NCBI GenBank assembly: GCA_043719825.1
Contig: JAYSTK010000171.1
Coordinates: forward strand, 1 to 55,154
Direction of reading: 5' to 3'
Length of the DNA stretch: 55,154 bases
Origin: Candidatus Kaiserbacteria bacterium
GTDB taxonomy: Bacteria; Patescibacteriota; Minisyncoccia; Phycocordibacterales; UBA918
Shown here: positions 10,216 through 31,752 of the stretch, piece by piece
Layout: each line of letters opens with the position of its first letter
How positions within the stretch are numbered: position 1 is the stretch's first letter
Notes under the pieces: model-generated
Told to the model about the DNA's origin: nothing
The model's input: the letters and a program-made list of their open reading frames with translations, nothing else
Databases searched by the model: none
Made by a program: the position numbers and the translations under genes

Positions 10216-11250
10216 CTATGTGAAATTATAAAATTGGTGCGCGTTTTTATAGAAAATCATTTCTTTGATTTTCTCTTGCATGCTATTTGGGAATTCATCA
10301 ATTACTGATTTTAAAGCAAAAATAGATGACCAGTGTGTATGTACTAAATTCTTTGCTAAATGTCTAAAGTGCGTATGTTCATTATTATCCACCCAATGAT
10401 ATTTATATTCCGTTATAAGTCGTTGACCTTTAATTGGGTTAACATATGACCTTGCGCGTACAAGATTAAGTGGCTGGTCACTCCCAAACATAATTCTCTC
10501 TGGTCCAAAATATTTGAATGCTAATTTCAGTACTTCTCTTGAAGGGTTTAGTGACGTATCAAGAAAAATATTTGTACTTTGAGCAAGTTCTCTGTAAACC
10601 TCTTCAAGTTCTGGGATCAAAAATTTAGTTGAACCCAAATGTGGTACACAAATTTTCAGTTTTGGATATTTTTTCAATACATTTAGCAAGTCATTCTTGC
10701 ATTCTGTTATAACTTTCGGAAGGTGAACAATTGAAGGTATCCCCAGATCTTCAGCTACTTTTAATATTTCCTCAGGAAAAGTTTCATATATTGTTCTTGC
10801 AGTTTGCTCAGGGTAAAAATAATACATTTTTAGAGCATTTGGTTTGTAATATTTTAAAATTGAAATTGTATATTCAACGTCTTCTGGTAATCCAAAAATG
10901 GCAACACCGTCCTTACCACGACTTGTTTCAAGTAAGTATGCATTTGCAGATTTGTGATCAATACCATTAAAAACATTAGGAAATCTAAGCGCGGACACTT
11001 CACTTTTTGGATAGAGAAGTTGATTTATTTTTCGCGAGTCATCCACGGAATGATAAAAAAATGTCGAAATCATACTATTAAGTGATTTTTGCGAAACCTT
11101 ACCCACGTGACATAATAAATTACAATGTGCATGACAATCTATGATTTTTTCTGGAAACCAATCAGCGAGAGTTTTAATATTGGTTTTCTCTTCATTGTTA
11201 AACGTAAGAGCATACTCCAGGTATTTTTCGGTAATGTCTTTATAATCCAT
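10216..11250 (-). CDS. amidohydrolase_2-type metal-dependent hydrolase (TIM barrel)
   Basis: IDCHAHC near the N-terminus, then internal VHLP and PHLG, then FLDTS and FGSDQP near the C-terminus. This is the layout of the amidohydrolase_2 family (decarboxylase/lactonase type). Confidence 0.65.
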   Translation of the reverse strand: MDYKDITEKYLEYALTFNNEEKTNIKTLADWFPEKIIDCHAHCNLLCHVGKVSQKSLNSMISTFFYHSVDDSRKINQLLYPKSEVSALRFPNVFNGIDHKSANAYLLETSRGKDGVAIFGLPEDVEYTISILKYYKPNALKMYYFYPEQTARTIYETFPEEILKVAEDLGIPSIVHLPKVITECKNDLLNVLKKYPKLKICVPHLGSTKFLIPELEEVYRELAQSTNIFLDTSLNPSREVLKLAFKYFGPERIMFGSDQPLNLVRARSYVNPIKGQRLITEYKYHWVDNNEHTHFRHLAKNLVHTHWSSIFALKSVIDEFPNSMQEKIKEMIFYKNAHQFYNFT

Positions 11251-11252
11251 AT

Positions 11253-13247
11253 TTAAGGAATTAATCTCCTATATGTTCTTGGAAATGGGACTGCATCCTG
11301 AACCATTTCTTTATTTAGAATTTTTGCAATAAGCCGATCAATGCCAATACAAAAACCTCCATGTTGCACAGCCTTATCAACTATGGAAATATAAAATTCA
11401 TAGTCACTAATATTAATTCCTGATAGTGACATTGATTTCTGAATCTTTTGCCCATCAGTTTGTCGTATCGCACCACTTACCAATTCCCATCCACCGACAA
11501 TAACATCAAATGTTTCAGTTAATCCCCCAGGTTTATCCTTAGTGTAAAACTTCTTAATAGTGTCTGGGTAATCCTTAATGACAAAAATATCACTATCGTA
11601 TTCATTTTTAATAAGTTGTCCGAGTTTTGCTTCACTCACCAAGCCGAGATCATCACCTAATGTAACTGGGTTTCCATTTTTTCGAAGAAGCTCGATCGCT
11701 TCATGATACGTTAATACTGGAAGACTATCGATGTTCGGAAATGATAAACTATTTGAAAGTTTGAATGTCTGAACAATTTCAGTATTAGACATCATTATTA
11801 TAGTGCACGCTAAACGATAGAGCTCTTCTAGATTCTTTGGATTACTTAGTTCTATGTCTAATCCGAGAGACTCTTGTAAATGTCTGTATGATTCATTCTC
11901 TTCCTTCCTCCAAAATGGACCAATTTCGTATATTTTGTGCAATCCTGAAGCTACAAGTATTTGTTTATACATTTGATTTGATTGACGCAAGAATGCGGTC
12001 GTTCCATTTATCCAATCAACATTAATTGTCCCACCCTTATCAATCTTGGGAGGATCAGTAGATATGCCAACAATATAGGGTGTGGTGACCTCAATAAACT
12101 CTTTTTCTGATAAATAATTTCTTACATTACTTATCAGAAGTGCTCGTTGTCTTACAAGGTCCAGCTTTTGTTTATCGAGTTTTAATCCATGAGTTTTTTG
12201 TCGATGAATGTATAATTTCCCAACACTAGTATTAATGTTGTCAATGATTACATTAAGCTTTTTCTGTATTACTGTACGAACTTTATTAATTTCAACTCTA
12301 CGAATTCCCGTATTACTTTCTGCAATTTTTGATAGTTCTTTAATATCTACGAAGGTACCAAATTTTCTATCCAATAATGGCTGTGAAGCAAGATCAATCT
12401 TGTAGATATTTTCAGTGCTAGGTATTGAGCTAACTAAATCATTAATTAGTTTGTTAGTATCGTCATTGCTATCTACTGCAACAATAATACAGCCAACATT
12501 AGCTGGAATCATACTACTATCAAAAGGAAGATAGTGAGCGGTTTCGACATCAAGTTTTTCATTTTTAATAATGATCGGAGTACGGTTTACAATATATAAA
12601 GGAAGTGATAGTTCTTGATTTAATATCTTTGCAATAAGTTTGCCAGACTTCCCATAGCCAATCAAAAGAATGTTCTTGTTTTGTATAATATTTTGTGAAA
12701 CAAGTCCACATGCAATTCTTTCAAGTGAAATATTACCTTCAAAAATATGAGTCCTCAACTTACATTCACTCACCACACCTTTAATCCATTCTGCTAAAAG
12801 TCTAAAGAGTTCATTTGCATCTGTGGTATGAATTCCAGATAATAAAGCATCATTTATCTGACCAGCAACCTGAGAATCTCCAATTGTCACACTATGTAGC
12901 CCAACTGCACATTCGGCTAAAAAGTTTATTGCATCAACTCCATGAAAAATTCTTATGTCTCTGATTGTATTCAATATGCTTACTTCAACGCATTGATCCC
13001 ATGTTGAAAGTAATCTACCACGTAAATGGTCTAAAGAAATATCATCCTGATACGAAATAAGCACCATGATTGCATTGCATTTTTTTACAATTGCGAGTGA
13101 ATCGATTTCTATTCCAAGATTACTTCTAAATCTGGTTAAAGTTACAACGTCGTTTTTTAAGTCTGCATTTTTTAAATTGGTCAAAGCTCGATCATCGAGT
13201 CTCTGATAGTTTAATACAGCACAGACTATTTTGTGGTTTAGTTGCAT
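11253..13247 (-). CDS. fusion protein: glutamyl-tRNA reductase (HemA)-like N-terminal half plus class IIb aaRS (archaeal-type AspRS/AsnRS) catalytic core lacking an anticodon-binding domain
   Basis: N-terminal half: KKCNAIMVL (compare HemA STCNRTELY), FLAECAVGLHSVTIGDSQVAGQI (compare [23 protein letters not shown]), Rossmann LLIGYGKSGKLIAKIL, IVNRT. C-terminal half: FIEVTTPYIV, FLRQSNQMYKQ, FWRKEENESYRHLQESLGLDIEL (motif 2), GGWELVSGAIRQ, HGGFCIGIDRLIAKIL (motif 3), terminal FPRTYRRLIP. Confidence 0.75.
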   Translation of the reverse strand: MQLNHKIVCAVLNYQRLDDRALTNLKNADLKNDVVTLTRFRSNLGIEIDSLAIVKKCNAIMVLISYQDDISLDHLRGRLLSTWDQCVEVSILNTIRDIRIFHGVDAINFLAECAVGLHSVTIGDSQVAGQINDALLSGIHTTDANELFRLLAEWIKGVVSECKLRTHIFEGNISLERIACGLVSQNIIQNKNILLIGYGKSGKLIAKILNQELSLPLYIVNRTPIIIKNEKLDVETAHYLPFDSSMIPANVGCIIVAVDSNDDTNKLINDLVSSIPSTENIYKIDLASQPLLDRKFGTFVDIKELSKIAESNTGIRRVEINKVRTVIQKKLNVIIDNINTSVGKLYIHRQKTHGLKLDKQKLDLVRQRALLISNVRNYLSEKEFIEVTTPYIVGISTDPPKIDKGGTINVDWINGTTAFLRQSNQMYKQILVASGLHKIYEIGPFWRKEENESYRHLQESLGLDIELSNPKNLEELYRLACTIIMMSNTEIVQTFKLSNSLSFPNIDSLPVLTYHEAIELLRKNGNPVTLGDDLGLVSEAKLGQLIKNEYDSDIFVIKDYPDTIKKFYTKDKPGGLTETFDVIVGGWELVSGAIRQTDGQKIQKSMSLSGINISDYEFYISIVDKAVQHGGFCIGIDRLIAKILNKEMVQDAVPFPRTYRRLIP

Positions 13248-13256
13248 ACACTATAT

Positions 13257-14006
13257 TTATTTGTTTCTATAAATATGTTCAACTGTTGCTTGATGCAATG
13301 GTGTAACAGTAACTTCATTTATTTGCACATGTTCAGGTAGTTCTATTGTAAACTTTATGATATTAGCAATATCATTTGCAGATAAGGGCTTAATATCAGA
13401 GTATACAGAATTTGCTTTTTCTTTATTTCCAGCAAAGCGAATGTTGCTAAAGTTTGTCTCGACTAATCCTGGTTGAATATTTGTTATTTTAATTTTATTT
13501 TGTATGACCTCCTTTCGAAGCCCATCTGAAATAGACTTTACCGCCGCTTTTGTTGCTGAGTATACAATTCCTTTTGCGTATGTTGTAATCCCTGCAATTG
13601 AGCCAATATTGATAATATGGCCATCATTATTTTCTTTCATTTGCTTGAGGGCAAACTGAGTAACGCATAGCAATCCTTTAATGTTTGTATCAAGCATTCT
13701 TTCCCAGTCTGATATATGGCTATTTTCAAAATAATCAAGTCCGAGCGCAAGACCTGCTGAGTTTATTAGTACATTAGGGTAAATTCCTTGTGATGCAAGT
13801 GAATCAAACATTTGTTCAACTTGCGACACCTTTGTCACATCAACCTCAAATATTTGTATACTATCAACTTTATCAAGTTTATTTTTAATGTCTCTCAAGT
13901 CAGTTAGATTTCTCGAACAAAGTACTAATTTGTGTTCATCATATAATTTATGAGCACACGCAAGTCCAATTCCGCTACTAGCTCCTGTTATAAGTATCGT
14001 CTTCAT
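13257..14006 (-). CDS. short-chain dehydrogenase/reductase, YdfG / serine 3-dehydrogenase-like
   Basis: TGASSGIG, NSAG, GHIINIGSIAG, YSATKAA (YxxxK), QPGLVETNFSNIRF. Closely resembles E. coli YdfG from memory. Confidence 0.85.
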   Translation of the reverse strand: MKTILITGASSGIGLACAHKLYDEHKLVLCSRNLTDLRDIKNKLDKVDSIQIFEVDVTKVSQVEQMFDSLASQGIYPNVLINSAGLALGLDYFENSHISDWERMLDTNIKGLLCVTQFALKQMKENNDGHIINIGSIAGITTYAKGIVYSATKAAVKSISDGLRKEVIQNKIKITNIQPGLVETNFSNIRFAGNKEKANSVYSDIKPLSANDIANIIKFTIELPEHVQINEVTVTPLHQATVEHIYRNK

Positions 14007-22806: not shown

Positions 22807-24471
22807 TTAAATAAGTGGAAATTCAATATTGAATGTAGAGCCCTGACCTTCTCCTTCTGACTCTGCCCACACTCGACCACCCATATCGGTGACCATTTTC
22901 TTCGCGACGAAAAGACCAAGACCAGTACCCGTGACATTCACGTTGTTCGCGTTCTTTGCACGAACAAATTTTTCAAATACTTCACCTTGCGTGTCCTTGC
23001 TCATGCCCACGCCCGTATCTTGGATCGTAATATACATTTTCTTCTTTTTTATATCGTCATGCGCGACTACCGTAATAGTTCCCTTCGGAGTGTATTTCAT
23101 TGAGTTATCAATGAGATTCATAATAACTTGACGTACTTTCCCGATATCAGCATGCACAAGGCATCCAGCGTCACAATCTGAGCGGAATACCATAACGAGA
23201 CCCTTTTTTAAAGCAACAGAACGAAGTTCGTCTGTAATTTTTTCTGCAACCTCCTTTAAACTAAAATCACTCATCTCATATTTCATGTTCCCTGCTTCGA
23301 TTCGTGACACATTGAGATAATCTTCAACTGAGAGCGCCATGTATTTTGATGATTCTGCAATGCGTTCAGCCACTTCCTGTGCCTTTGCAGTCAATTTCCC
23401 ATATGAACCCTCAGCAAGCATTGATGCATATCCGCGGATTGAGGTAAGTGGACTTCGAAGCTGGTGTGACGCGATAGATACAAACTCAGACTTCATTTTA
23501 TCAAGCACTTTAAGTTTTTCGTTTGCCTTCTGCAGACTCTCTACGAGATGTTCAATTTGCTCTCGTTGTTTTACTTCCTTGTTTACACTTCGTACAAGGA
23601 AATAACCACCGATACATGCAAGGAAAAATGTTATTCCAACCAATATTTGGTTAGTCGTTGACTCGACAAAGAAAAACTCTGAACCAATGAGAAGAATTAG
23701 TGAAGCAACAAGTGCTTGAGCAGCAAGTAGTTTTATATTGAATGCTTTAAATTTCACAATTGAGTATGACAAAAGTGCTAAAAATAGAAGCATTCCGACA
23801 GGACCTACTAGGTTAATTTCGTATTCGCCTGAATGTAGAGCAAGATATTCTGAAAAAGAAAGGAAAATAAGAAAACAAGAACATGCCGCTAGTAAAAATA
23901 GATGTGCTAGTTTCTCCGCTCTTACATTAGGTTTTAATGTAACCCGAACAGCTTTGTATACACACCAAAGTATGGAAAGACCAGCAAGAAAATAAACGTA
24001 CGTTATAAGAGGTCCACTGATAGCTTCGCAATAATCTAGATCGAAAGATTGAATATTTAAAGATGTGGGTAAAAGTAAAATCACCGGTAAAGACAAAAGA
24101 AACGTAAAAAAATTATATTTAAAAGGAACTGATTTTTTTTCAATATATAAATAAGCAAAGTAAACAATAGCTATTATGATTAATAATCGTAGAAGTGGAA
24201 CGAGTGCCCAACCAAATGTAACAACCGCAGCTGGTATTGCAATCCAAAGTATAATTTCATTAATAATTGAGACTGCAAATAAAACAGTTATTAAAAAAAG
24301 TGCCCGTGAGCGTGATGAATATTTATCTTGAAATAGAATAAAAATACCAATGATTAATGCTGTAATTGCAATAGGGATATACGAGTAGAATAGAAGTGGC
24401 GGAGCTACACCGATATCAAATATCCCCAAGAGTGTTGGGTAGGTGTCAGTACACATGAGTAAATCAGACAT
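22807..24471 (-). CDS. sensor histidine kinase with large polytopic N-terminal domain (no adjacent response regulator)
   Basis: H-box SHQLRSPLTSIRGY, N-box NLIDNSMKYT, G-boxes QDTGVGM and GTGLGL. The first ~290 aa are hydrophobic. Confidence 0.9.
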   Translation of the reverse strand: MSDLLMCTDTYPTLLGIFDIGVAPPLLFYSYIPIAITALIIGIFILFQDKYSSRSRALFLITVLFAVSIINEIILWIAIPAAVVTFGWALVPLLRLLIIIAIVYFAYLYIEKKSVPFKYNFFTFLLSLPVILLLPTSLNIQSFDLDYCEAISGPLITYVYFLAGLSILWCVYKAVRVTLKPNVRAEKLAHLFLLAACSCFLIFLSFSEYLALHSGEYEINLVGPVGMLLFLALLSYSIVKFKAFNIKLLAAQALVASLILLIGSEFFFVESTTNQILVGITFFLACIGGYFLVRSVNKEVKQREQIEHLVESLQKANEKLKVLDKMKSEFVSIASHQLRSPLTSIRGYASMLAEGSYGKLTAKAQEVAERIAESSKYMALSVEDYLNVSRIEAGNMKYEMSDFSLKEVAEKITDELRSVALKKGLVMVFRSDCDAGCLVHADIGKVRQVIMNLIDNSMKYTPKGTITVVAHDDIKKKKMYITIQDTGVGMSKDTQGEVFEKFVRAKNANNVNVTGTGLGLFVAKKMVTDMGGRVWAESEGEGQGSTFNIEFPLI

Positions 24472-24665: not shown

Positions 24666-25958
24666 TTAAACTATCCATCCCCATTTTTTTAGAAGAGGGA
24701 TATCATGCTTATGAACTCGAGTTCCGATATCAGTGCGGTAGATCATTTTTGGGACTTTTAATAACGAAAGAAGTTTATGAATTTTTCTTTGTGCCACAGG
24801 GATGGTTTTTGCTGTAGTGACTACATATCCAAGATAGCCAAATTCACCCGCCCAATAAAGTTGCTCACCTTTTTTCCCTATTTCTTTTGAGACTTCTTCT
24901 AAATAGATCGAGTTACTTTCTTCCTCCGTTAGAGAATGTGTGAAGGACACTATTGTTTTTTTTGAACTTCTTTTTCGAAGGGGTGGATATGGAAAGGGTG
25001 GAACAGCAACTGAAGCTACAATGCCATATGCATTTTTAAATTTCATTTGCGCATTTTTTCCAGTTGCAACCTTGTATAGAAAATCTCCAAATGATGATTC
25101 ATATAGTTCACACTGTAATTGAATGGCCGGGGTACCTAACCTTGGTGTAAGCTCAAGTGGCCAAATATCATTTTGTGTAACAATGCAATTCACATCTATA
25201 TCTCCTTGAAATTGGATTTTTTGCAGAAATGGTGTGATTCGCTTAAGGGTTTTTTCATATAGTGGCAATGTTTCGTCTGTTGAATGCCACATCACAGTCC
25301 CCATTTCAGCAGTTAGTGGACCTTTGTCATCATTTAGCAGTCTTTTATGCTCATGATTAATTTCGATAGGTCCAACCCATTCGCGACCGTTGAAGTAGCG
25401 GGCAATACCTACTTCAATGCCATCCACTTTCTTTTGGAGATGCGCATGAGGAATTTTCAATTTTTTATAGAGTTGTAGCCGTTCAATAACATCGCTTCCA
25501 TCAGTTTTTTCCCCAACAAAATTTAGACTGCTAATATGACTTGTTTGTTTTACTGCCCATTTTCCCTTATTTTCACGAACAAAGTCTATGGCAGCATTGA
25601 TATCTTTAAAATTAAATGAAGGCAAAATCTTTATTCCATAAGTATGAAGAATACGCTGACCATATGCACGATCAAGTTCTAAACGATCTGCTTCCATATT
25701 GCCTCCGAAGACTATATACCCCCTTTTCCGAAGACTTTCTTGAATTTCACCAAAACCTACATCATCAAAAATGATAAGTCCTTCTTTACCAACCCACTTT
25801 AACTCCTTTTTCCAATCAGGTGTTTTATTAATAAAACCAGCAAGGCACTCTTTACGAGCAGGATCATGAATATACAATTTTACATCGTGACCCTCCTTAA
25901 CTAATCTGTGGCATAGACCTGAACCAATAAGTTCATTAGAAATAAACAATACCCTCAT
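24666..25958 (-). CDS. PurD-like ATP-grasp ligase (orphan; no other pur genes nearby)
   Basis: Follows the PurD layout: EHKRLLNDDKGPLTAEMGT (compare DHKR..D.GPNTGGMG), ELTPRLGTPA (compare EFNCRFGDPE), C-terminal RTDIG. Confidence 0.65.
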   Translation of the reverse strand: MRVLFISNELIGSGLCHRLVKEGHDVKLYIHDPARKECLAGFINKTPDWKKELKWVGKEGLIIFDDVGFGEIQESLRKRGYIVFGGNMEADRLELDRAYGQRILHTYGIKILPSFNFKDINAAIDFVRENKGKWAVKQTSHISSLNFVGEKTDGSDVIERLQLYKKLKIPHAHLQKKVDGIEVGIARYFNGREWVGPIEINHEHKRLLNDDKGPLTAEMGTVMWHSTDETLPLYEKTLKRITPFLQKIQFQGDIDVNCIVTQNDIWPLELTPRLGTPAIQLQCELYESSFGDFLYKVATGKNAQMKFKNAYGIVASVAVPPFPYPPLRKRSSKKTIVSFTHSLTEEESNSIYLEEVSKEIGKKGEQLYWAGEFGYLGYVVTTAKTIPVAQRKIHKLLSLLKVPKMIYRTDIGTRVHKHDIPLLKKWGWIV

Positions 25959-25966
25959 AACAAGAA

Positions 25967-26368
25967 TTAATGAATGCTGATACTCGGATAATGAAGCCCT
26001 CTCGGTTGAATATATACTTCAGAGCTTTGAAGCTTAAATTTGTCTTTTAAAAGTGTGACAAATTTTTCAGTGTCAAGATCATTTTGGCAGGTATAAACGT
26101 CGATGGTAATAAAACCACGATCTGGAAATGTATGAAAACTTATATGGCTTTCAGCAATCAGAATAAAACCACTCAGTCCACCTGGGTCTTTACGGTTAAG
26201 TGGGCCTACTTCAATTACTAGTGGCTCACTGATCGTATTCATATTCATCTTAGCGGGAAGTTCTACAAGTAAGTTAGTAAGTACTTCCTTATTTGCGAGA
26301 ATCTCCTTCGGTGAGCCATATCCATCCACCATAAGGTGTACTCCAAATTGTTCTGTCGGTGTTTCCAT
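25967..26368 (-). CDS. class 1b S-adenosylmethionine decarboxylase-fold pyruvoyl enzyme
   Basis: Self-processing motif LIAESHISFHTFPD and downstream DVYTC. 133 aa. Confidence 0.85.
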   Translation of the reverse strand: METPTEQFGVHLMVDGYGSPKEILANKEVLTNLLVELPAKMNMNTISEPLVIEVGPLNRKDPGGLSGFILIAESHISFHTFPDRGFITIDVYTCQNDLDTEKFVTLLKDKFKLQSSEVYIQPRGLHYPSISIH

Positions 26369-26462: not shown

Positions 26463-27044
26463 TTATCCCGTAATGTACTTGGAGAAGTCGACTATTGAGT
26501 CGAATCCAAGTATGTAGAGAGGTGTCCAGATCGCTGCCTGAACTGCTGTAAGCGCGAGTAGCGTCAGGAGTATGAGAGTGTCTCGCCCAAGCTCCTTGCT
26601 GAAGAAGATAACAATGTGTTCCGGGCCGTCCCAGAACGTTGCTTTTAAACATACGAGTCCAATTGCAACGCGAGCCGCCGCAATCGATTTTGTACGCACA
26701 GCATCGACAGCGTGTCGGAAGCTTTCTCCGAGCGTAACGTCTTCCCCAGTGCGTTTCCATGTCAGCACAAATAGATATGCGACTGCGAGGTCGAACACCC
26801 ACATGGAAATGAAAAGAAGGAACCAGTCACGTCCCACAAGCTTATCCACGGCGATGATGAACACCGCTGAAAGAGCCATGAGCCAGTAGTCAGCGACTGC
26901 GTAGATTGTCCGCATTGCTGCGGTCTTAGCAATCTTAGTGCCAGCTGTAGCACTTGTATCTTCTTCGTTGATGCTAAAGAACGCCTTTGTGCCAAGCACA
27001 AAGATGGCTGCCCAATGAGCAGCCCAAGTTTTGGTGCTGCTCAT
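26463..27044 (-). CDS. polytopic membrane protein, unknown function, GC-richer than flanks
   Basis: 193 aa with 4-5 hydrophobic segments. The overlapping ORF 26383..26802 is in another frame and Cys/Arg-rich, so I rejected it. Confidence 0.55.
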   Translation of the reverse strand: MSSTKTWAAHWAAIFVLGTKAFFSINEEDTSATAGTKIAKTAAMRTIYAVADYWLMALSAVFIIAVDKLVGRDWFLLFISMWVFDLAVAYLFVLTWKRTGEDVTLGESFRHAVDAVRTKSIAAARVAIGLVCLKATFWDGPEHIVIFFSKELGRDTLILLTLLALTAVQAAIWTPLYILGFDSIVDFSKYITG

Positions 27045-27223
27045 AGAGCCTCCTGTGTTTAACAGCCTATATTATAACAATAATAATAGAATATGTCAAT
27101 ACTCTTCAATAGACAATGTGTTTTATTTAAAAATCCCTATCTATTGAGTTCTAAAAAATGACACATGAGCAATTACTGGGTGTATTATTGAGCACCGACT
27201 GCAAACACTTTTTATCAAACAAT

Positions 27224-27255
27224 AAAAAAGACCCTGTTGTAGCAGGGACTTTTTG
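27224..27255. terminator. bidirectional hairpin terminator
   Basis: AAAAAAG-ACCCTG-TTGTAG-CAGGGA-CTTTTT. On the minus strand it ends the three-gene ATP-grasp operon. Confidence 0.6.
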
Positions 27256-27273: not shown

Positions 27274-27447
27274 TTAATCGTCACGACTTCGGGGATGGCC
27301 AGAACGCGTGTGAAACCATTCTGGATTGACTTGGAACTGAGCAGTAGATTCCTCGGTTGTGTCTCCTACCACTGCTTTTTGGTGCTGATCTGCTTGTTGT
27401 ACTAGAAAAGGAACATCGTCATTCGGTACTTCATTATGAAGTTTCAT
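27274..27447 (-). CDS. 57-aa candidate graspetide precursor peptide
   Basis: GGAG lies 6 nt upstream of the ATG (27445-27447). Sequence: MKLHNEVPNDDVPFLVQQADQHQKAVVGDTTEESTAQFQVNPEWFHTRSGHPRSRDD. It has a PFLVQQ leader-like motif and a Thr/Ser/Glu/Asp-rich segment. It is the last gene of the ATP-grasp operon and is followed by a terminator. Confidence 0.4.
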   Translation of the reverse strand: MKLHNEVPNDDVPFLVQQADQHQKAVVGDTTEESTAQFQVNPEWFHTRSGHPRSRDD

Positions 27448-27475
27448 TTGCAACTCCGAGAGAGTTAAGGACAAC

Positions 27476-28195
27476 TTATTTAAGCAGATCAACAATTTCT
27501 GTCAAGTTTTTTGGCGATAAAGCCATATCTGACTTTTGGATTTCCAAAGTATAGTCAAAAAAAATTGAGGGCCCTTCGTGCTGGGTATAGGCTTCTTTAA
27601 CATTGTATTCATGACCTTCAACACAAATTTTTCCACGAATATAATGCAAAAATACTGCGCATGTTTTAAATTTAGAACTTAGTTGTGCTCCCATTGGGTT
27701 TACCACGTTTGAATCAAATAGATACTCTTTTTTGCGAGCATGAAGTGTTCCTGTTTCTACAATAATTGGGTGAGAAAAATGCTTCTTATATGAAATGAGT
27801 TTTTCTGTCATATGTCTCTCGCGATCAATTTTCTCCGTGTCTATAGAATCAAACGTTGTTATAAAAATACTGTGCTTCTTTTTTATATTAGACTTTCTAA
27901 TCCACTTTAACAATGTAATATGCTCATATGTAAATCTTCCGTCAGAATCAATGAAACTATCACTGAGAGTTTCTGGCAACTCTCCTCCGTATGTGTAGGT
28001 TTGTAGGTCAATCAACTCTTTACTTGATAAAGGCCATTCAAAAGCAATGCTAAATGATTTGTTGTTCTCAACTAGAGGTTTTGCAATTTGTCCTATCAAC
28101 TGAGCATTCTGGGATGAACCATGCAACTCGCCAATGAGCATAAAATCATAGCTGCATGCAATTTTCGCCAAATCAGTTGAATTAATGACATCCAT
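27476..28195 (-). CDS. hypothetical protein, possibly erythromycin-esterase/Tiki/ChaN superfamily
   Basis: I set the start at MDVINST. The N-terminal MLIGELHGSSQNAQLIGQIAKPLVENNKSFSIAFEWP resembles the GE.HG....E pattern of that superfamily. This is a weak, memory-based call. Confidence 0.4.
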   Translation of the reverse strand: MDVINSTDLAKIACSYDFMLIGELHGSSQNAQLIGQIAKPLVENNKSFSIAFEWPLSSKELIDLQTYTYGGELPETLSDSFIDSDGRFTYEHITLLKWIRKSNIKKKHSIFITTFDSIDTEKIDRERHMTEKLISYKKHFSHPIIVETGTLHARKKEYLFDSNVVNPMGAQLSSKFKTCAVFLHYIRGKICVEGHEYNVKEAYTQHEGPSIFFDYTLEIQKSDMALSPKNLTEIVDLLK

Positions 28196-28255
28196 ATTTT
28201 GAGTATAGTATAAAAAGACCCATTGCCACAAGGCAATGGGTCGGTTCAGGATATT

Positions 28256-29191
28256 TCACAAACAAAGGAAGTCAATGAAAGGGTTGGTGAGATCAAAATT
28301 TGTCATGTATTGAAGCCACAACCATTGGCCGTTTGGATTAAGTTCCAGGAACACGAGAGTATCATTTTTTGTTACTGCAAAGTCGACTGCTGAGAACTCC
28401 AATCTAAAATGTTTCATCAAAGCAATTAATGCAGCTGTTGTTTTTTTATCAATTGAGCAGACTTCATGCTTAATCTTATCCAACGTAAGCTGTTTAAGAT
28501 CGTCGACTTGAGATTGAGGAATCAGCCTGAATGCGTAAGCCTTTGAACCGAACATTACAACTCGCACTTCGTATTTAATTTCAAGTTTTTCCTGTGCAAA
28601 ACAAGGGGTAAATTTGGTTGCTTGACCAAAATTTAATGATTTGAGGGTGCGAGTCCCGAGAACACGTGAACTTTTTTCAGAATTCAGGACCTGAGTTTGG
28701 ATTGGTTTAGCTACAATTCCATTTGCACATTCACTTGCAAAAGATTTAAGCACATCTAAATCCTTTGTGATGAGAGTCCTGGGTATATCTAGGCCGTACC
28801 TGGCTGCTGTGATCAGCTGATTAGGTTTTGAGCGTGCTGAAACAATGCTTTCAGGTCTACTTACCCAGCGACAGGAGGTATATTGATGCAGTAATGATTC
28901 GATCAAGCCTTCAGTTTCTTGAAAACAAAAGGACCGGATGTGGTCGAACTTCTCAGGAATGTGTAATCGTCTCCGATACCAAATAACTGAAACATCATCC
29001 GTATGCCATGAGTTATTCTTAGTTCGCTGTTTGTCGTTGGGGCAAAGTCGCCATGTGGCATTAGGTATTTGGGTAACAGTATCTGTATTGAGTCTATTAA
29101 ATAAAATAGAGCGTCTTTTGCACGCATCTTCAATGATATTTACATGGCGGTCGTCTGACTCACTAACTGCAAGAATTTTTATCAGTGACAT
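28256..29191 (-). CDS. ATP-grasp ribosomal peptide maturase (MdnB/MdnC, microviridin-type)
   Basis: 311 aa. DDRHVNIIEDA..RLNTD, VIWYRRR, SKPNQLITAARYGLDIPRTLITKD, QEKLEIKYEVRVVMFG, FLELNPNGQWLWLQ. These match the family pattern as I recall it. Confidence 0.72.
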   Translation of the reverse strand: MSLIKILAVSESDDRHVNIIEDACKRRSILFNRLNTDTVTQIPNATWRLCPNDKQRTKNNSWHTDDVSVIWYRRRLHIPEKFDHIRSFCFQETEGLIESLLHQYTSCRWVSRPESIVSARSKPNQLITAARYGLDIPRTLITKDLDVLKSFASECANGIVAKPIQTQVLNSEKSSRVLGTRTLKSLNFGQATKFTPCFAQEKLEIKYEVRVVMFGSKAYAFRLIPQSQVDDLKQLTLDKIKHEVCSIDKKTTAALIALMKHFRLEFSAVDFAVTKNDTLVFLELNPNGQWLWLQYMTNFDLTNPFIDFLCL

Positions 29192-29389
29192 TTGAAACCC
29201 CTTATGTCAAGTTACAACTAGTTAGAGCGTAACATTCTGTGGACTATTGTCAATTATACTTGTGATTGCTAACTCGCACTTATATTGTAGTTCCTTAGCG
29301 TGCTTTCAGGAATAATTTTTTTTAAAATCCTTTTATTTTAAGGAAATATGATTCATACTGTATCTTTCGAGCAAGCATAATCTATACAA

Positions 29390-30301
29390 ATGCATCCTAT
29401 TGAAAAAGACACACGTATTTTATCAATTCGGGAAATTGTCTTTGTTGATATAGCAGCTGCACTTAAGGAAAAATTTACAGAGGATAAATTTGAAAATGCG
29501 CTCTGCAATTCGAATAAGGTCCGCGTTTTCGCTATTACATATGAGTCTAATGGACATGCAGTAGTGGGCTATATTGTAGAGCCGCGAGAATTAAATAGTA
29601 AGACACCGGGCATCATTTATAATCGTGGTGGAACACGAGACTTTGGTGCTATAAAGATGGGAACTCTTTTCTATTTCTTAGCTGAGATTGCTTCGTGGGG
29701 GTACATTATCTTTGCGTCACAATACTCAGGTGGACCAGGTAGTGAGGGTGAAGATGAATGGGGTGGGGCTGATCTCGATGACGTAATTGTTCTTCATGAA
29801 ATAGCTAAGAGTCATCCATACGTGGATTCAGAACGAATTGGAATGATGGGAGTAAGTCGCGGTGGCATGATGACATACCTTGCTCTTAAAAAACTGTCTG
29901 GAATAAAAGCTGCAGTAATACGCTCTGGTGCAACTAACTTAATTCGTTCTAAAGAATTCCGCTCAAAAATGTGGACTATGTACCAAGAACTTTTTGGGGA
30001 GAATGTTGAAGAGGAATGTAGAAAACGGTCAATTGTTTATTCAGCTAATGAGCTACCAGATACCACTCCCCTCCTCATTATGCATGGTACAGCTGATTGG
30101 CGTGTATCTCCGGAAGATGCTTTAGAAATATCAAGTGAGCTTTTACGTCACAAGAAACCTCACAGACTAATAATGTATGAAGGTGCAGACCATGGACTTA
30201 TCGAGGTTCATGATGAGGTAATGCATGAAACTAGGAATTGGCTAGATAAATTTGTTAAAAATAGTACTACACTTCCAAATCTCTTGCCGCATGGTGATTA
30301 A
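29390..30301 (+). CDS. S9-type serine peptidase / alpha-beta hydrolase (catalytic domain only)
   Basis: Nucleophile elbow GVSRGG, HGTADWRV (Asp), GADHG (His). Confidence 0.78.
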   Translation: MHPIEKDTRILSIREIVFVDIAAALKEKFTEDKFENALCNSNKVRVFAITYESNGHAVVGYIVEPRELNSKTPGIIYNRGGTRDFGAIKMGTLFYFLAEIASWGYIIFASQYSGGPGSEGEDEWGGADLDDVIVLHEIAKSHPYVDSERIGMMGVSRGGMMTYLALKKLSGIKAAVIRSGATNLIRSKEFRSKMWTMYQELFGENVEEECRKRSIVYSANELPDTTPLLIMHGTADWRVSPEDALEISSELLRHKKPHRLIMYEGADHGLIEVHDEVMHETRNWLDKFVKNSTTLPNLLPHGD

Positions 30302-30419
30302 TGAATTTTCCATTTTCTTCCTTTGAAATAACTAATATAATTGTAACAGATAAAATGGATTGTCAAACTGGTTTGAATGTAAATTACATTCCAAAAAAGA
30401 CCATGAACGGAGATGTATT

Positions 30420-31673
30420 TTAGGTTTTGGGAAGCCCAATGAATTCACCACTTGCCTCAGGACTAAAATGCTTATGATAGATTGCATTGAGTGAGTGCGT
30501 GTTTACTTCTTTTAGAATCCAATCAACAAGCATCGTTTCTGTAAAGTTGGCCTCATATGTAATGATGCTATCTTGCGCTGCATCGATTCTTTCCCCAATT
30601 GTTTGGAATGCAAAACACTTTGATTTGATGAGTCTATCTTTAGCTACACTGATTGCCGTTTCGTCGTTAATCGCTTTCACTACGATGTCGTGGATCGATT
30701 CCTTCACTTTCATCGCGTTCGCCTCGTCATTCACGGGGACATCAATGTTCCAACCCATACGCTCTCGTTCTGACCAACTCGCACCTCCTACTCCATATGA
30801 AATGCCCATTTCTTTTCGGTATACATCATTAAGGACCCCGTACTCACTATCTGTAAGGTAATCACATAGGAAAGCAATTGTTCTAGCTTCATTAAGGTTT
30901 GCATATGGAATAAAATTTCCCCACATGTATACCGGGGCATCTATATCGAGCGATTGCATGGTGTGGAATGCCTGACGATTCCATTCATATGGAATGAACC
31001 GAGAAGAAGGCAAATGTTCTTCCTTGAAGGTGATTGATTCAAGTTCACTGCTAAGTTTTTCGTGATCGAAATTACCTGCGATGATGACGGTAAACGGTCG
31101 TGAAAGATAATTACTATGGAATCGAAGTAGTAGATCATGGGACATGGATCCAATTGTTTCATCAGTTCCAAACACTTGATCTTTCAATACAAAATGAGCT
31201 TTTGCCCATTCAGTAAATTTATAGTGCCCAAAATGATCGTTCGCAGGAAAATATTTACTTAATGACCGTTCGCTCATAATGATGCCTTTATGGAGTTCTA
31301 TATCATCATGATAAAGAGAAGGATGCACAATGTGCTTAATCAATTTTGAGGCAAGGTCATTGAAGTCACTGCTGGGCGCTTGCATGAAAAATGTAGTTTC
31401 AAACGGTGTAGTCCATGCGTTTGAGTTTCCCCCTGCATCTGCAACCTGTTTCTCAAAACTATTTCGTACAAGTTCACCTTCGGAACGATCAAGGCATACA
31501 TGTTCCAAAAAATGAGCGATTCCATATGCGCCACCATAGTTTCCTTCGTGGGAATGACTTGTTCCGATCGGTACAATAACCCGTATCTGCGCAAAAGGCA
31601 TTTGTACTTTTTGTGACCATACCGGTATTTTATTCTTGAGAATGGTTTTATTGAAAGCAAGTCGATCATCCAT
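30420..31673 (-). CDS. M16 (pitrilysin) family zinc peptidase
   Basis: HFLEHV (HxxEH). I set the start at MDDRLAFNK because the longer track ORF would run through the upstream terminator hairpins. Confidence 0.8.
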   Translation of the reverse strand: MDDRLAFNKTILKNKIPVWSQKVQMPFAQIRVIVPIGTSHSHEGNYGGAYGIAHFLEHVCLDRSEGELVRNSFEKQVADAGGNSNAWTTPFETTFFMQAPSSDFNDLASKLIKHIVHPSLYHDDIELHKGIIMSERSLSKYFPANDHFGHYKFTEWAKAHFVLKDQVFGTDETIGSMSHDLLLRFHSNYLSRPFTVIIAGNFDHEKLSSELESITFKEEHLPSSRFIPYEWNRQAFHTMQSLDIDAPVYMWGNFIPYANLNEARTIAFLCDYLTDSEYGVLNDVYRKEMGISYGVGGASWSERERMGWNIDVPVNDEANAMKVKESIHDIVVKAINDETAISVAKDRLIKSKCFAFQTIGERIDAAQDSIITYEANFTETMLVDWILKEVNTHSLNAIYHKHFSPEASGEFIGLPKT

Positions 31674-31690
31674 AATATAAAATAGTATAA

Positions 31691-31752
31691 TGCAAAAAAT
31701 AATGAACGGACAAAGGATGTGTCCGTTCATCCGTCTCCGTCAATGGAGACGG
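31691..31752 (-). terminator. tandem hairpins ending the small-protein gene
   Basis: CCGTCTCC-N6-GGAGACGG (31731-31752) and GAACGGAC-N9-GTCCGTTC (31704-31728), followed on the minus strand by ATTATTTTTT. Confidence 0.6.

Follow-up and report, generated by a model that had tools for sequence, protein, structure and literature searches.

Introduction

Graspetides are an established class of peptides that are made by ribosomes and modified after translation (RiPPs), and the described pathways closest to the system of interest here are those of microviridin (MdnA with MdnB and MdnC; group 1) and plesiocin (PsnA2 with PsnB; group 2), the latter a TTxxxxEE hairpin with two nested esters. In this paper we looked at a 55,154-nucleotide contig of Candidatus Kaiserbacteria bacterium (JAYSTK010000171.1; this whole stretch is called the window), whose minus strand encodes an ATP-grasp ligase (28256 to 29191), a protein with the EreA/ChaN/Tiki fold (27476 to 28195; called the partner below) and a 57 amino acid peptide (27274 to 27447), followed by a terminator. 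We consider it quite probable that these three genes form a graspetide-type RiPP module, minimal and self-contained, of a Patescibacteria-like bacterium of the candidate phyla radiation (CPR), for which a processing scheme can be proposed. The product is most likely a small ring-closed peptide made from the last 13 residues of the 57 amino acid precursor.

Graspetide loci of CPR bacteria were described as ‘branch 1’ and ‘branch 2’, with loosely associated Tiki/TraB and alpha/beta-hydrolase genes (Makarova 2022, PMC8939145). In branch 2 the Tiki/TraB genes are likely to be co-expressed and were predicted to be leader cleavers; the precursors of most branch 2 loci were not confidently identified, with misses by gene callers suspected, and every locus of both branches encodes a ‘cluster 23’ secreted or lipoprotein-like protein (PMC8939145). 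The view of a preliminary description of our locus, that a RiPP cluster is unexpected in such a reduced genome, is therefore out of date. Our loci come from the same host group and their precursors are, indeed, mostly uncalled. No fourth gene is conserved among the 18 loci compared here, in a general comparison made without a cluster 23 query. A further described system is that of rosaritide, whose graspetide synthetase depends on a partner protein, MirC (PMC13097080). It is similar to our locus in having a strictly co-occurring extra protein beside the graspetide synthetase, but the gene clusters of the rosaritide group are noted for a divergent PpiC-type peptidyl-prolyl isomerase (PMC13097080), a fold unrelated to that of our partner protein. 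Groups 27 and 42, which a 2026 RODEO survey reports from candidate phyla, differ from our family in their cores and in the proteins that co-occur with them (PMC13097080).

Compared with the microviridin pathway, our module has the same ligase fold, including the pre-ATP-grasp domain (TMq ~0.8 to MdnC, 5ig9), a similar Pro-hydrophobic-hydrophobic leader helix motif (PFLVQQA here, PFFARFL in microviridin) and, likewise, Thr/Ser donors and acidic acceptors in the core. It differs in having a single ligase instead of two dedicated ones (ester and amide), in lacking the acetyltransferase and the ABC transporter, in placing the precursor gene last in the operon and in an obligatory EreA/Tiki-fold gene. 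The core, FHTR[C/S]GHPRxxDD, is unrelated to the microviridin TxKYPSDWEE and falls outside group 1; its predicted acceptors are the two C-terminal residues and, since it contains no Lys, no lactam is expected. Plesiocin is similar in having two close hydroxyl donors and two adjacent acidic acceptors, which suggests a small two-ring hairpin made by one ligase; PsnB is also a structural match of our ligase. Unlike plesiocin, the donors are at i and i+2 with the second usually a Cys, the acceptors are Asp-Asp rather than Glu-Glu, and there is one core instead of repeats. The core string FHTRCGHPR is absent from the searchable part of the literature's main texts and of the supplements of PMC8939145 and PMC13097080. 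It had been suggested earlier that the precursor fits no graspetide core class, and this holds for the described classes as far as they are comparable, the original 24 RODEO groups not having been compared motif by motif. The enzyme class is thus known, and it is this peptide family, with its obligatory esterase- or protease-like partner, that was not previously characterized.

Results

The 311 amino acid ATP-grasp protein has an N-terminal MvdD-type pre-ATP-grasp (leader-binding) domain. Scanning NCBIfam gave, below the curated cut-offs, TIGR04187 (‘ATP-grasp ribosomal peptide maturase’, 2e-49), MvdC (1e-36) and MvdD (8e-32), against 5e-9 for RimK, 0.03 for LysX and 0.04 for GshB; Pfam PF21068, the MvdD pre-ATP-grasp domain, was matched at 5e-5. 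A profile built from 24 family members and run against PDB sequences found AMdnB (7e-45), MdnB (1e-43), CdnC (1e-40), MdnC (1e-38) and PsnB (1e-13, the weakest among the solved graspetide ligases); PruB was also matched, and the best non-graspetide match was of the LysX/ArgX type (3vpb, 2e-4). The AlphaFold2 (AF2) model of the ligase has a pLDDT of 91.5, and its Foldseek ranks 1 to 31 are all graspetide macrocyclases (TMq 0.72-0.80); a truncated MdnB chain is at rank 34 (TMq 0.63), and LysX, ArgX and RimK have TMq values of 0.59-0.66. Residues that are invariant in the ligase family include K162, E208, R210, D270, E283 and N285. By sequence and predicted fold the ligase is a graspetide-synthetase homologue, which groups with MdnC, MdnB, CdnC, PsnB and PruB. 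The preliminary description had called it MdnC-type and had named a grouping with RimK or GshB as the finding that would speak against this; the TIGR04187 and PF21068 models match, and a RimK-, LysX- or GshB-type identity was rejected because the hidden Markov model (HMM), PDB-profile and Foldseek rankings all favour graspetide macrocyclases. The window contains no second ligase, and the E-x-NP-x-G-x-[WFY] motif is found in no other open reading frame (ORF) of the window.

The precursor, MKLHNEVPNDDVPFLVQQADQHQKAVVGDTTEESTAQFQVNPEWFHTRSGHPRSRDD, starts at an internal ATG (27447) of the ORF 27274 to 27495 (-) and was also called as a gene of 57 amino acids in an independent assembly. An alignment of 14 precursors shows that it consists of three parts: a conserved leader motif, P13-FLVQQ-A19 (27391 to 27411), an acidic linker that is variable in length and sequence (residues 20-44; 27316 to 27390) and a conserved 13-residue C-terminal core (residues 45-57; 27277 to 27315). 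The leader consensus, PFL[VLM]xxA near the N-terminus, is kept in all 20 close-family precursors, and the PFLVQQ that had been noted as leader-like belongs to it. The leader signature Phhx(1,2)h of PMC8939145 fits most family members (PFL[LV]QF) and, loosely, the PFLVQQ of the window. The Thr/Ser/Asp/Glu-rich stretch VVGDTTEESTAQFQVNPEWF (residues 26-45), which was thought to supply the cross-links, was rejected as the core, since all of it except the last residue, F45, is non-conserved linker; the alignment and a codon table of 20 distinct DNAs place the conserved core at FHTR[C/S]GHPRx[R/I]DD.

In the window this core, with the consensus F-H-[T/S]-R-[C/S]-G-H-P-R-x-[R/I]-D-D-stop, reads FHTRSGHPRSRDD (F45-H-T47-R-S49-G-H-P-R-S-R-D56-D57). 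Among the 20 DNAs, 12 of which came from a DNA-pattern search that required FHTRCGHPR, positions 1, 2, 4, 6, 7, 8, 9, 12 and 13 are invariant (F, H, R, G, H, P, R, D and D, respectively). Position 3 is Thr in 19 and Ser in one, position 5 is Cys in 19 and Ser only in the window, and positions 10 and 11 are variable, with His at residue 54 of the precursor in 11 of the 20. Eleven of the 13 core positions are therefore invariant or show only a T/S or C/S exchange, and a stop codon directly follows the second Asp in all 20 sequences. Every synonymous codon is in use at the nine invariant positions, and the four-fold degenerate codon positions of the core all vary among loci. To judge from these codons, the short ORF is clearly selected at the level of the peptide. 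An example of the common Cys-type precursor is that of the Uhrbacteria locus L004, which ends in ...FHTRCGHPRRRDD; no second precursor was found in the window. Donor-type (T/S and C/S) and acceptor-type (D12-D13) residues are both conserved in the core, a Cys donor being atypical for graspetides, and we predict T47 and S49 as donors and D56 and D57 as acceptors. This pattern, [T/S]x[C/S]x6DD-COOH, differs from the branch 1 signature TxxxTx(6-10)Dx(1-4)D (PMC8939145).

All related loci whose sequence extends far enough, on about 20 genome and metagenome contigs of Patescibacteria, contain the module. A word-indexed protein search with the ligase gave ~45 relatives at 40-49% identity, followed by a drop to 31% or less, and a scan of one genome per species delimited a close clade of 10 loci (41-48% identity) in nine different genomes, mostly Patescibacteria and including Uhrbacteria and Kaiserbacteria metagenome-assembled genomes (MAGs). 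These nearest relatives and the housekeeping gene content both agree with a Patescibacteria assignment. In this clade the ligase gene is directly followed by a homologue of the 239 amino acid partner and then by a short ORF that gene predictors mostly fail to call. A near-identical 13 amino acid C-terminus is present in all nine other distinct undisrupted loci that were found via the ATP-grasp protein alone, so the short ORF is conserved next to homologous ATP-grasp genes, where a lack of conservation would have counted against the original proposal. From the peptide side, the back-translated FHTRCGHPR pattern found 12 contigs in 241 million metagenome records; wherever there is enough flanking sequence the partner gene lies upstream, and so does the ligase gene where the contig reaches it. 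An all-against-all comparison of the 18 loci left only the ligase, the partner gene and the short ORF in common. Such a three-gene arrangement is far beyond chance.

One locus, L012, is an apparent exception, in that a transposase-containing sequence follows the ligase gene; the partner and precursor genes lie on overlapping contigs from the same site. In this Hainich groundwater Patescibacteria genome (L012 4968 to 6602, L094 1420 to 3052, and L097) the ligase gene is separated from the other two genes of the module by a transposase gene (482 amino acids), with an identical 80-nucleotide segment on both sides of the transposase gene across contigs. This could be an insertion sequence or an effect of assembly repeats. 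Anti-phage defence and a phage origin were considered and set aside: PADLOC gave no match to the ligase, to its partner or to the membrane protein encoded downstream, and a search of 2.9 million viral contigs gave only one distant relative (28%).

In more distant Tiki-associated loci of CPR and DPANN organisms the precursors are unrelated, and they are placed 5' of, between or 3' of the two enzyme genes. Their core regions are FWTKCKDKKGKSTDD (Brennerbacteria), TETRSGSCGGSADDTD (Campbellbacteria), GDTTCDNPPRTDDAVAD (Taylorbacteria), TLTTWKGTDPDD (Paceibacterota) and SPTACSIKGVPVIDDF (Woesearchaeota, DPANN). A [T/S]-x-[C/S]...D-D logic is common to three of the distant precursors, and all have a C-terminal Asp pair or cluster. 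In DPANN-type Woesearchaeota MAGs (L042 3687 to 5664 and L048 175 to 2057) a pair of ligase and Tiki-like genes is found with precursors that end in ...[ST]P[TS]AC[ST]IKG[VI]PVIDD[FW], which suggests that the module was exchanged between CPR bacteria and DPANN archaea.

The partner gene starts at ATG 28195, as shown by homologue alignment and by an independent gene call in a second assembly of the same organism, and encodes 239 amino acids with neither a signal peptide nor any signal-like segment at the N-terminus. The longest ORF form (27476 to 28231, -) would give 251 amino acids. Comparison of 41 homologues (25% mean identity) gave the invariant residues G22-E23-x-H25-G26, E53, G86, G149 and H152, so that paired GxxH motifs (G22-E-x-H25-G and G149-x-x-H152) are accompanied by a conserved Glu. 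The family profile matched BcR135, an Ere-family structural-genomics protein (2rad/3b55), at 3.7e-10, and RRSP and HopBA1 more weakly; GExHG, E53 and H152 of the partner align to GEaTHG, LEE and NGH of BcR135 (2rad). The AF2 model (pLDDT 95.1) had as its top Foldseek matches BcR135/BcR136, ChaN (2g5g), EreC (6xcq), RRSP and HopBA1, all with a probability of at least 0.99. Unlike the Ere family, the partner is below every curated family threshold: the Pfam ChaN model, Cofac_haem_bdg, scored 15.5 bits against a cut-off of 27.7, and NCBIfam gave nothing at E up to 1. With 239 residues, compared with 392-408 in the matched Ere-family chains, it also lacks roughly 160 residues of these chains.

Based on the fold matches and the GxxH/Glu pattern, which it has in common with Ere, ChaN, Tiki, TraB/PrgY, RRSP and HopBA1, the partner is a compact member of the EreA/ChaN/Tiki superfamily, as had been proposed from its GELHG start. 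This superfamily spans ester hydrolases (EreA, EreB and EreC) and peptide-bond hydrolases (Tiki and RRSP), and we know of no member with a demonstrated role in the maturation of a graspetide or another RiPP. The partner is most likely a leader peptidase.

The wider partner family is large: E limits of 1e-3 and 1e-30 give 4594 and 805 representatives, respectively. Two of the homologues (P0133 and P0151) are named ‘iron-regulated protein’ in their source annotation. Across 80 graspetide-type loci, partner-family neighbours were seen in lineages of the CPR and of DPANN, as well as in a few MAGs that carry no phylum-level name; they are absent from the loci among these 80 that are named Acidobacteria, Actinobacteria or Proteobacteria, except for one contig labelled Gammaproteobacteria (L008). 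Fusions of an ATP-grasp and a Tiki-like domain were sought as Rosetta-stone evidence and rejected: the long matches P0167, P0183 and P0288 contain no ATP-grasp domain, and each matches the partner profile in two stretches. Another protein, P0114 (354 amino acids, on an 18.6-kb contig), opens with a C-terminal ATP-grasp motif (FLELNPNGQWLWLE) and continues into a Tiki-like domain; it is probably a gene-calling run-on over two adjacent genes and not a true fusion. In a Nanoarchaeia MAG (L101, 459 to 4169) a Tiki-like gene lies within a cluster of radical-SAM/SPASM, FtsJ-methyltransferase and DUF2268 genes, and no ATP-grasp gene was found in the stretch examined, which indicates that the partner family may serve other RiPP-like pathways too.

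The three minus-strand ORFs of the preliminary description are all present in the window, and the motifs listed there (DDRH, WYRRR, NQL..A..GLDIPRTLIT, FLELNPNGQWLWLQ, GELHG, PFLVQQ and VVGDTTEESTAQFQVNPEWF) are found in their translations. Direct reading of the sequence (all signals are on the minus strand) shows a Shine-Dalgarno-like AAGGGG 6 nucleotides 5' of the ATP-grasp ATG (29198 to 29203) and a GGAG ribosome-binding site 6 nucleotides 5' of the precursor ATG (27454 to 27457); the good ribosome-binding site and the 28-nucleotide gap reported for the short ORF are correct. The gap between ligase and partner genes had been given as 24 nucleotides, which applies to the longest ORF form (TTG 28231) only; from ATG 28195 it is 60 nucleotides. 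The terminator reported at the end of the operon was also found, after the stop codon of the precursor gene, as an intrinsic terminator (27225 to 27247; CCCTGCTACAACAGGG and TCTTTTTTAT) with a hairpin at 27232 to 27247 and a T-run; the folding energy of the 76-nucleotide region around it is -17 kcal/mol (z -3.1). Folding shows a second hairpin, followed by TTTTTAT, in the spacer between the ligase and partner genes (28210 to 28242; stem-loop 28217 to 28242), with an 11-bp stem that includes 7 GC pairs (-22.2 kcal/mol, z -5.8). It looks like a terminator or attenuator, through which expression may be attenuated or the ligase gene uncoupled from the two genes that follow. This hairpin is not conserved at the other loci, where the ligase and partner genes abut or overlap. 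No Rfam families or tRNAs were found in the window.

Several genes around the operon were considered as module members and rejected, as they recur only sporadically or through synteny: an S9 peptidase, an M16 peptidase, a histidine kinase, the membrane protein at 26463 to 27044 and DnaJ. In the stretch 29390 to 31730 the S9 (prolyl-oligopeptidase-family) peptidase gene is divergent from the operon over a shared intergenic region of 198 nucleotides, and the M16 peptidase gene comes next. In L002 a close S9 homologue (1.8e-67) is found at ~3 kb from the module, and in L001 the module has an alpha/beta hydrolase gene nearby. These S9 and M16 peptidases are possible helper proteases, an association that is not conserved overall. 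The histidine kinase gene near the module (22807 to 24471) has a counterpart directly 5' of the ligase gene in L002 (3305 to 4903) and homologues in the CPR graspetide loci L019, L022, L034 and L068, and it may reflect either synteny or a regulatory link.

Just past the operon terminator there is a perfect sigma-70 consensus (27071 to 27099, -; TTGACA, 17 nucleotides, TG-TATAAT, 12/12), which precedes the gene of the 193 amino acid membrane protein at 26463 to 27044; this protein has no Pfam match and is not conserved at other loci. The stretch 24666 to 26368 (-) encodes an AdoMet-decarboxylase-like protein of 133 amino acids directly followed by a 430 amino acid GARS-like ATP-grasp protein, an unusual pairing. 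Further away, a low-GC block (10216 to 14006, -; 0.33 against ~0.41) has genes for an Amidohydro_2 protein, for a 664 amino acid fusion protein in which a GlutR_N-like N-terminus is joined to the catalytic domain of a class II (Asp/Lys/Asn-type) aminoacyl-tRNA synthetase, and for an SDR protein. The block adjoins a normal class II aminoacyl-tRNA synthetase and could be a biosynthetic island built around a synthetase paralogue.

Discussion

The ligase identity, the conservation of the short ORF, its leader motif and the fold of the partner agree with the original proposal of a graspetide-type RiPP operon. In the scheme that we propose, the ligase would dock the leader motif PFLVQQA on its pre-ATP-grasp domain, as MdnC does with PFFARFL, and would phosphorylate the side-chain carboxylates of Asp56 and Asp57 to acyl phosphates. 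Attack by the hydroxyl groups of Thr47 and Ser49 (the Cys thiol in nearly all relatives) would then close two omega-(thio)ester macrocycles and lower the mass by 36 Da. One option for the ring pairing is a plesiocin-like nested arrangement, T47-D57 with S49-D56. The cytoplasmic EreA/Tiki-fold enzyme, which keeps GExHG...E...GxxH, would most likely cut the leader just upstream of Phe45 and so leave a bicyclic, cationic, His/Arg-rich 13-mer; the conserved module offers no exporter or immunity gene for it. By likeness to microviridin and marinostatin, one may guess that the product is a protease inhibitor with Arg53, in a Gly-His-Pro-Arg loop, as its P1 residue.

Several points weigh against this reading. 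The cross-links in the core are predicted from sequence, and we know of no natural precedent for Cys as a donor in graspetides; the conserved His and Cys of the core could be metal ligands instead. Within the superfamily of the partner, conserved residues cannot tell an esterase from a protease. Every ATP-grasp HMM score of the ligase is under its curated cut-off (168 bits against 350 for TIGR04187), so that the ligase belongs to a divergent clade. Because of the pattern selection of 12 of the 20 core sequences, the independent evidence for conservation comes to about 10 sequences, those found via the ligase, which give the same picture. No transporter, immunity gene or extra protease is conserved as a module member among the 18 loci and, in the window, a terminator-like hairpin parts the ligase gene from the other two.

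A question that is raised by the core sequences is what the Cys at position 5 does. It is conceivable, although we hold it to be rather doubtful, that this Cys is a native nucleophile, which would give a Cys-S-CO-Asp macrothiolactone beside the macrolactone, and that the EreA-fold hydrolase acts on this (thio)ester chemistry. The hydrolase would then edit the rings, or resolve an acyl shift from T-x-C, and not only trim the leader. Graspetide synthetases can form non-native thioesters (PMC13097080), so a Cys donor is chemically plausible. Both exchanges seen at the donor positions, T to S and C to S, retain a nucleophile, which favours a donor role of position 5, and the Cys-to-Ser swap, seen in the window and in a Campbellbacteria relative, fits a nucleophile better than a metal ligand or a disulfide. 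If true, these peptides would be the first graspetides with a native thioester cross-link.

The same RiPP module may, as an alternative to leader removal, employ the partner as an esterase on the (thio)ester rings, for proofreading, for ring-opening maturation or for self-protection by linearizing the peptide. That the closest structural relatives are Ere-family proteins, the macrolactone esterase EreC among them, that the substrate is predicted to hold side-chain esters and that both partner and ligase are cytoplasmic would all fit; yet the superfamily proteases Tiki, RRSP and TraB/PrgY have the same catalytic constellation, and the partner is shorter than the Ere-family chains by the ~160 residues mentioned above. 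An enzyme that is strictly co-encoded in a reduced genome in order to undo the work of the ligase is also less parsimonious, and the module would otherwise be without a leader peptidase. We therefore find the esterase function unlikely.

Another hypothesis is that the partner has a non-catalytic or indirect role in ligase stability or substrate presentation, comparable to MirC in the rosaritide system, and that a housekeeping protease removes the leader. Invariant Glu and His residues of a catalytic type, kept over very divergent homologues, point to an enzyme and make such a helper decidedly unlikely, even though partner-dependent graspetide synthetases exist (PMC13097080) and the ligase and partner genes co-occur strictly and often overlap. 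The S9 peptidase gene divergent from the operon, which in one further locus has a homologue at ~3 kb from the module, would provide a protease for this hypothesis, but neither the S9 nor the M16 neighbour is conserved across loci.

It is also hard to see the peptide as a metal or haem ligand that binds through His46, Cys/Ser49, His51 and position 54, with the ChaN-like protein handling haem or iron and the ATP-grasp enzyme capping or cyclizing Asp-Asp. In its favour are a His-rich core, in which 19 of 20 sequences have a Cys, the likeness of the middle protein to ChaN (2g5g) and the iron-related annotation of P0133 and P0151. In the window peptide, however, Ser replaces both the Cys (49) and the His (54), distant members lack the His residues yet keep T-x-C/S...DD, and no metal transporter is associated with the module in the 18 loci, which leaves this explanation improbable. 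Finally, a non-RiPP role, in which a small molecule or the C-terminus of a protein is modified by a RimK-, LysX- or GshB-like ligase, with a spurious or regulatory short ORF beside it, is very improbable and largely refuted by the present analysis: the below-cut-off HMM scores and the likeness of the extreme C-terminal Asp-Asp to the acidic-tail substrate of RimK speak for it, but the RimK, LysX and GshB models are at least 40 orders of magnitude worse, the fold ranking agrees, and the short ORF has a microviridin-like leader motif, shows clear selection as a peptide and is linked to the module in all cases.

Conclusions

The graspetide-type module described here is real, well defined and accessible to experiment, but not categorically new. 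For one CPR clade whose precursor genes are mostly uncalled, a concrete precursor family with a 13-residue C-terminal core is now pinned down, within a minimal three-gene system of ligase, EreA/Tiki-fold enzyme and precursor. Even if its chemistry should prove ordinary, it contributes a core topology that is new to the graspetide catalogue. The system is compact enough for asking if an enzyme of the EreA/Tiki fold represents a new class of RiPP leader peptidase or acts as a graspetide esterase, and it is suited to asking whether graspetide ligases natively use Cys. That a RiPP is kept in very small episymbiont genomes, with related logic in DPANN archaea, is likely to be of importance in competition or in interaction with the host.

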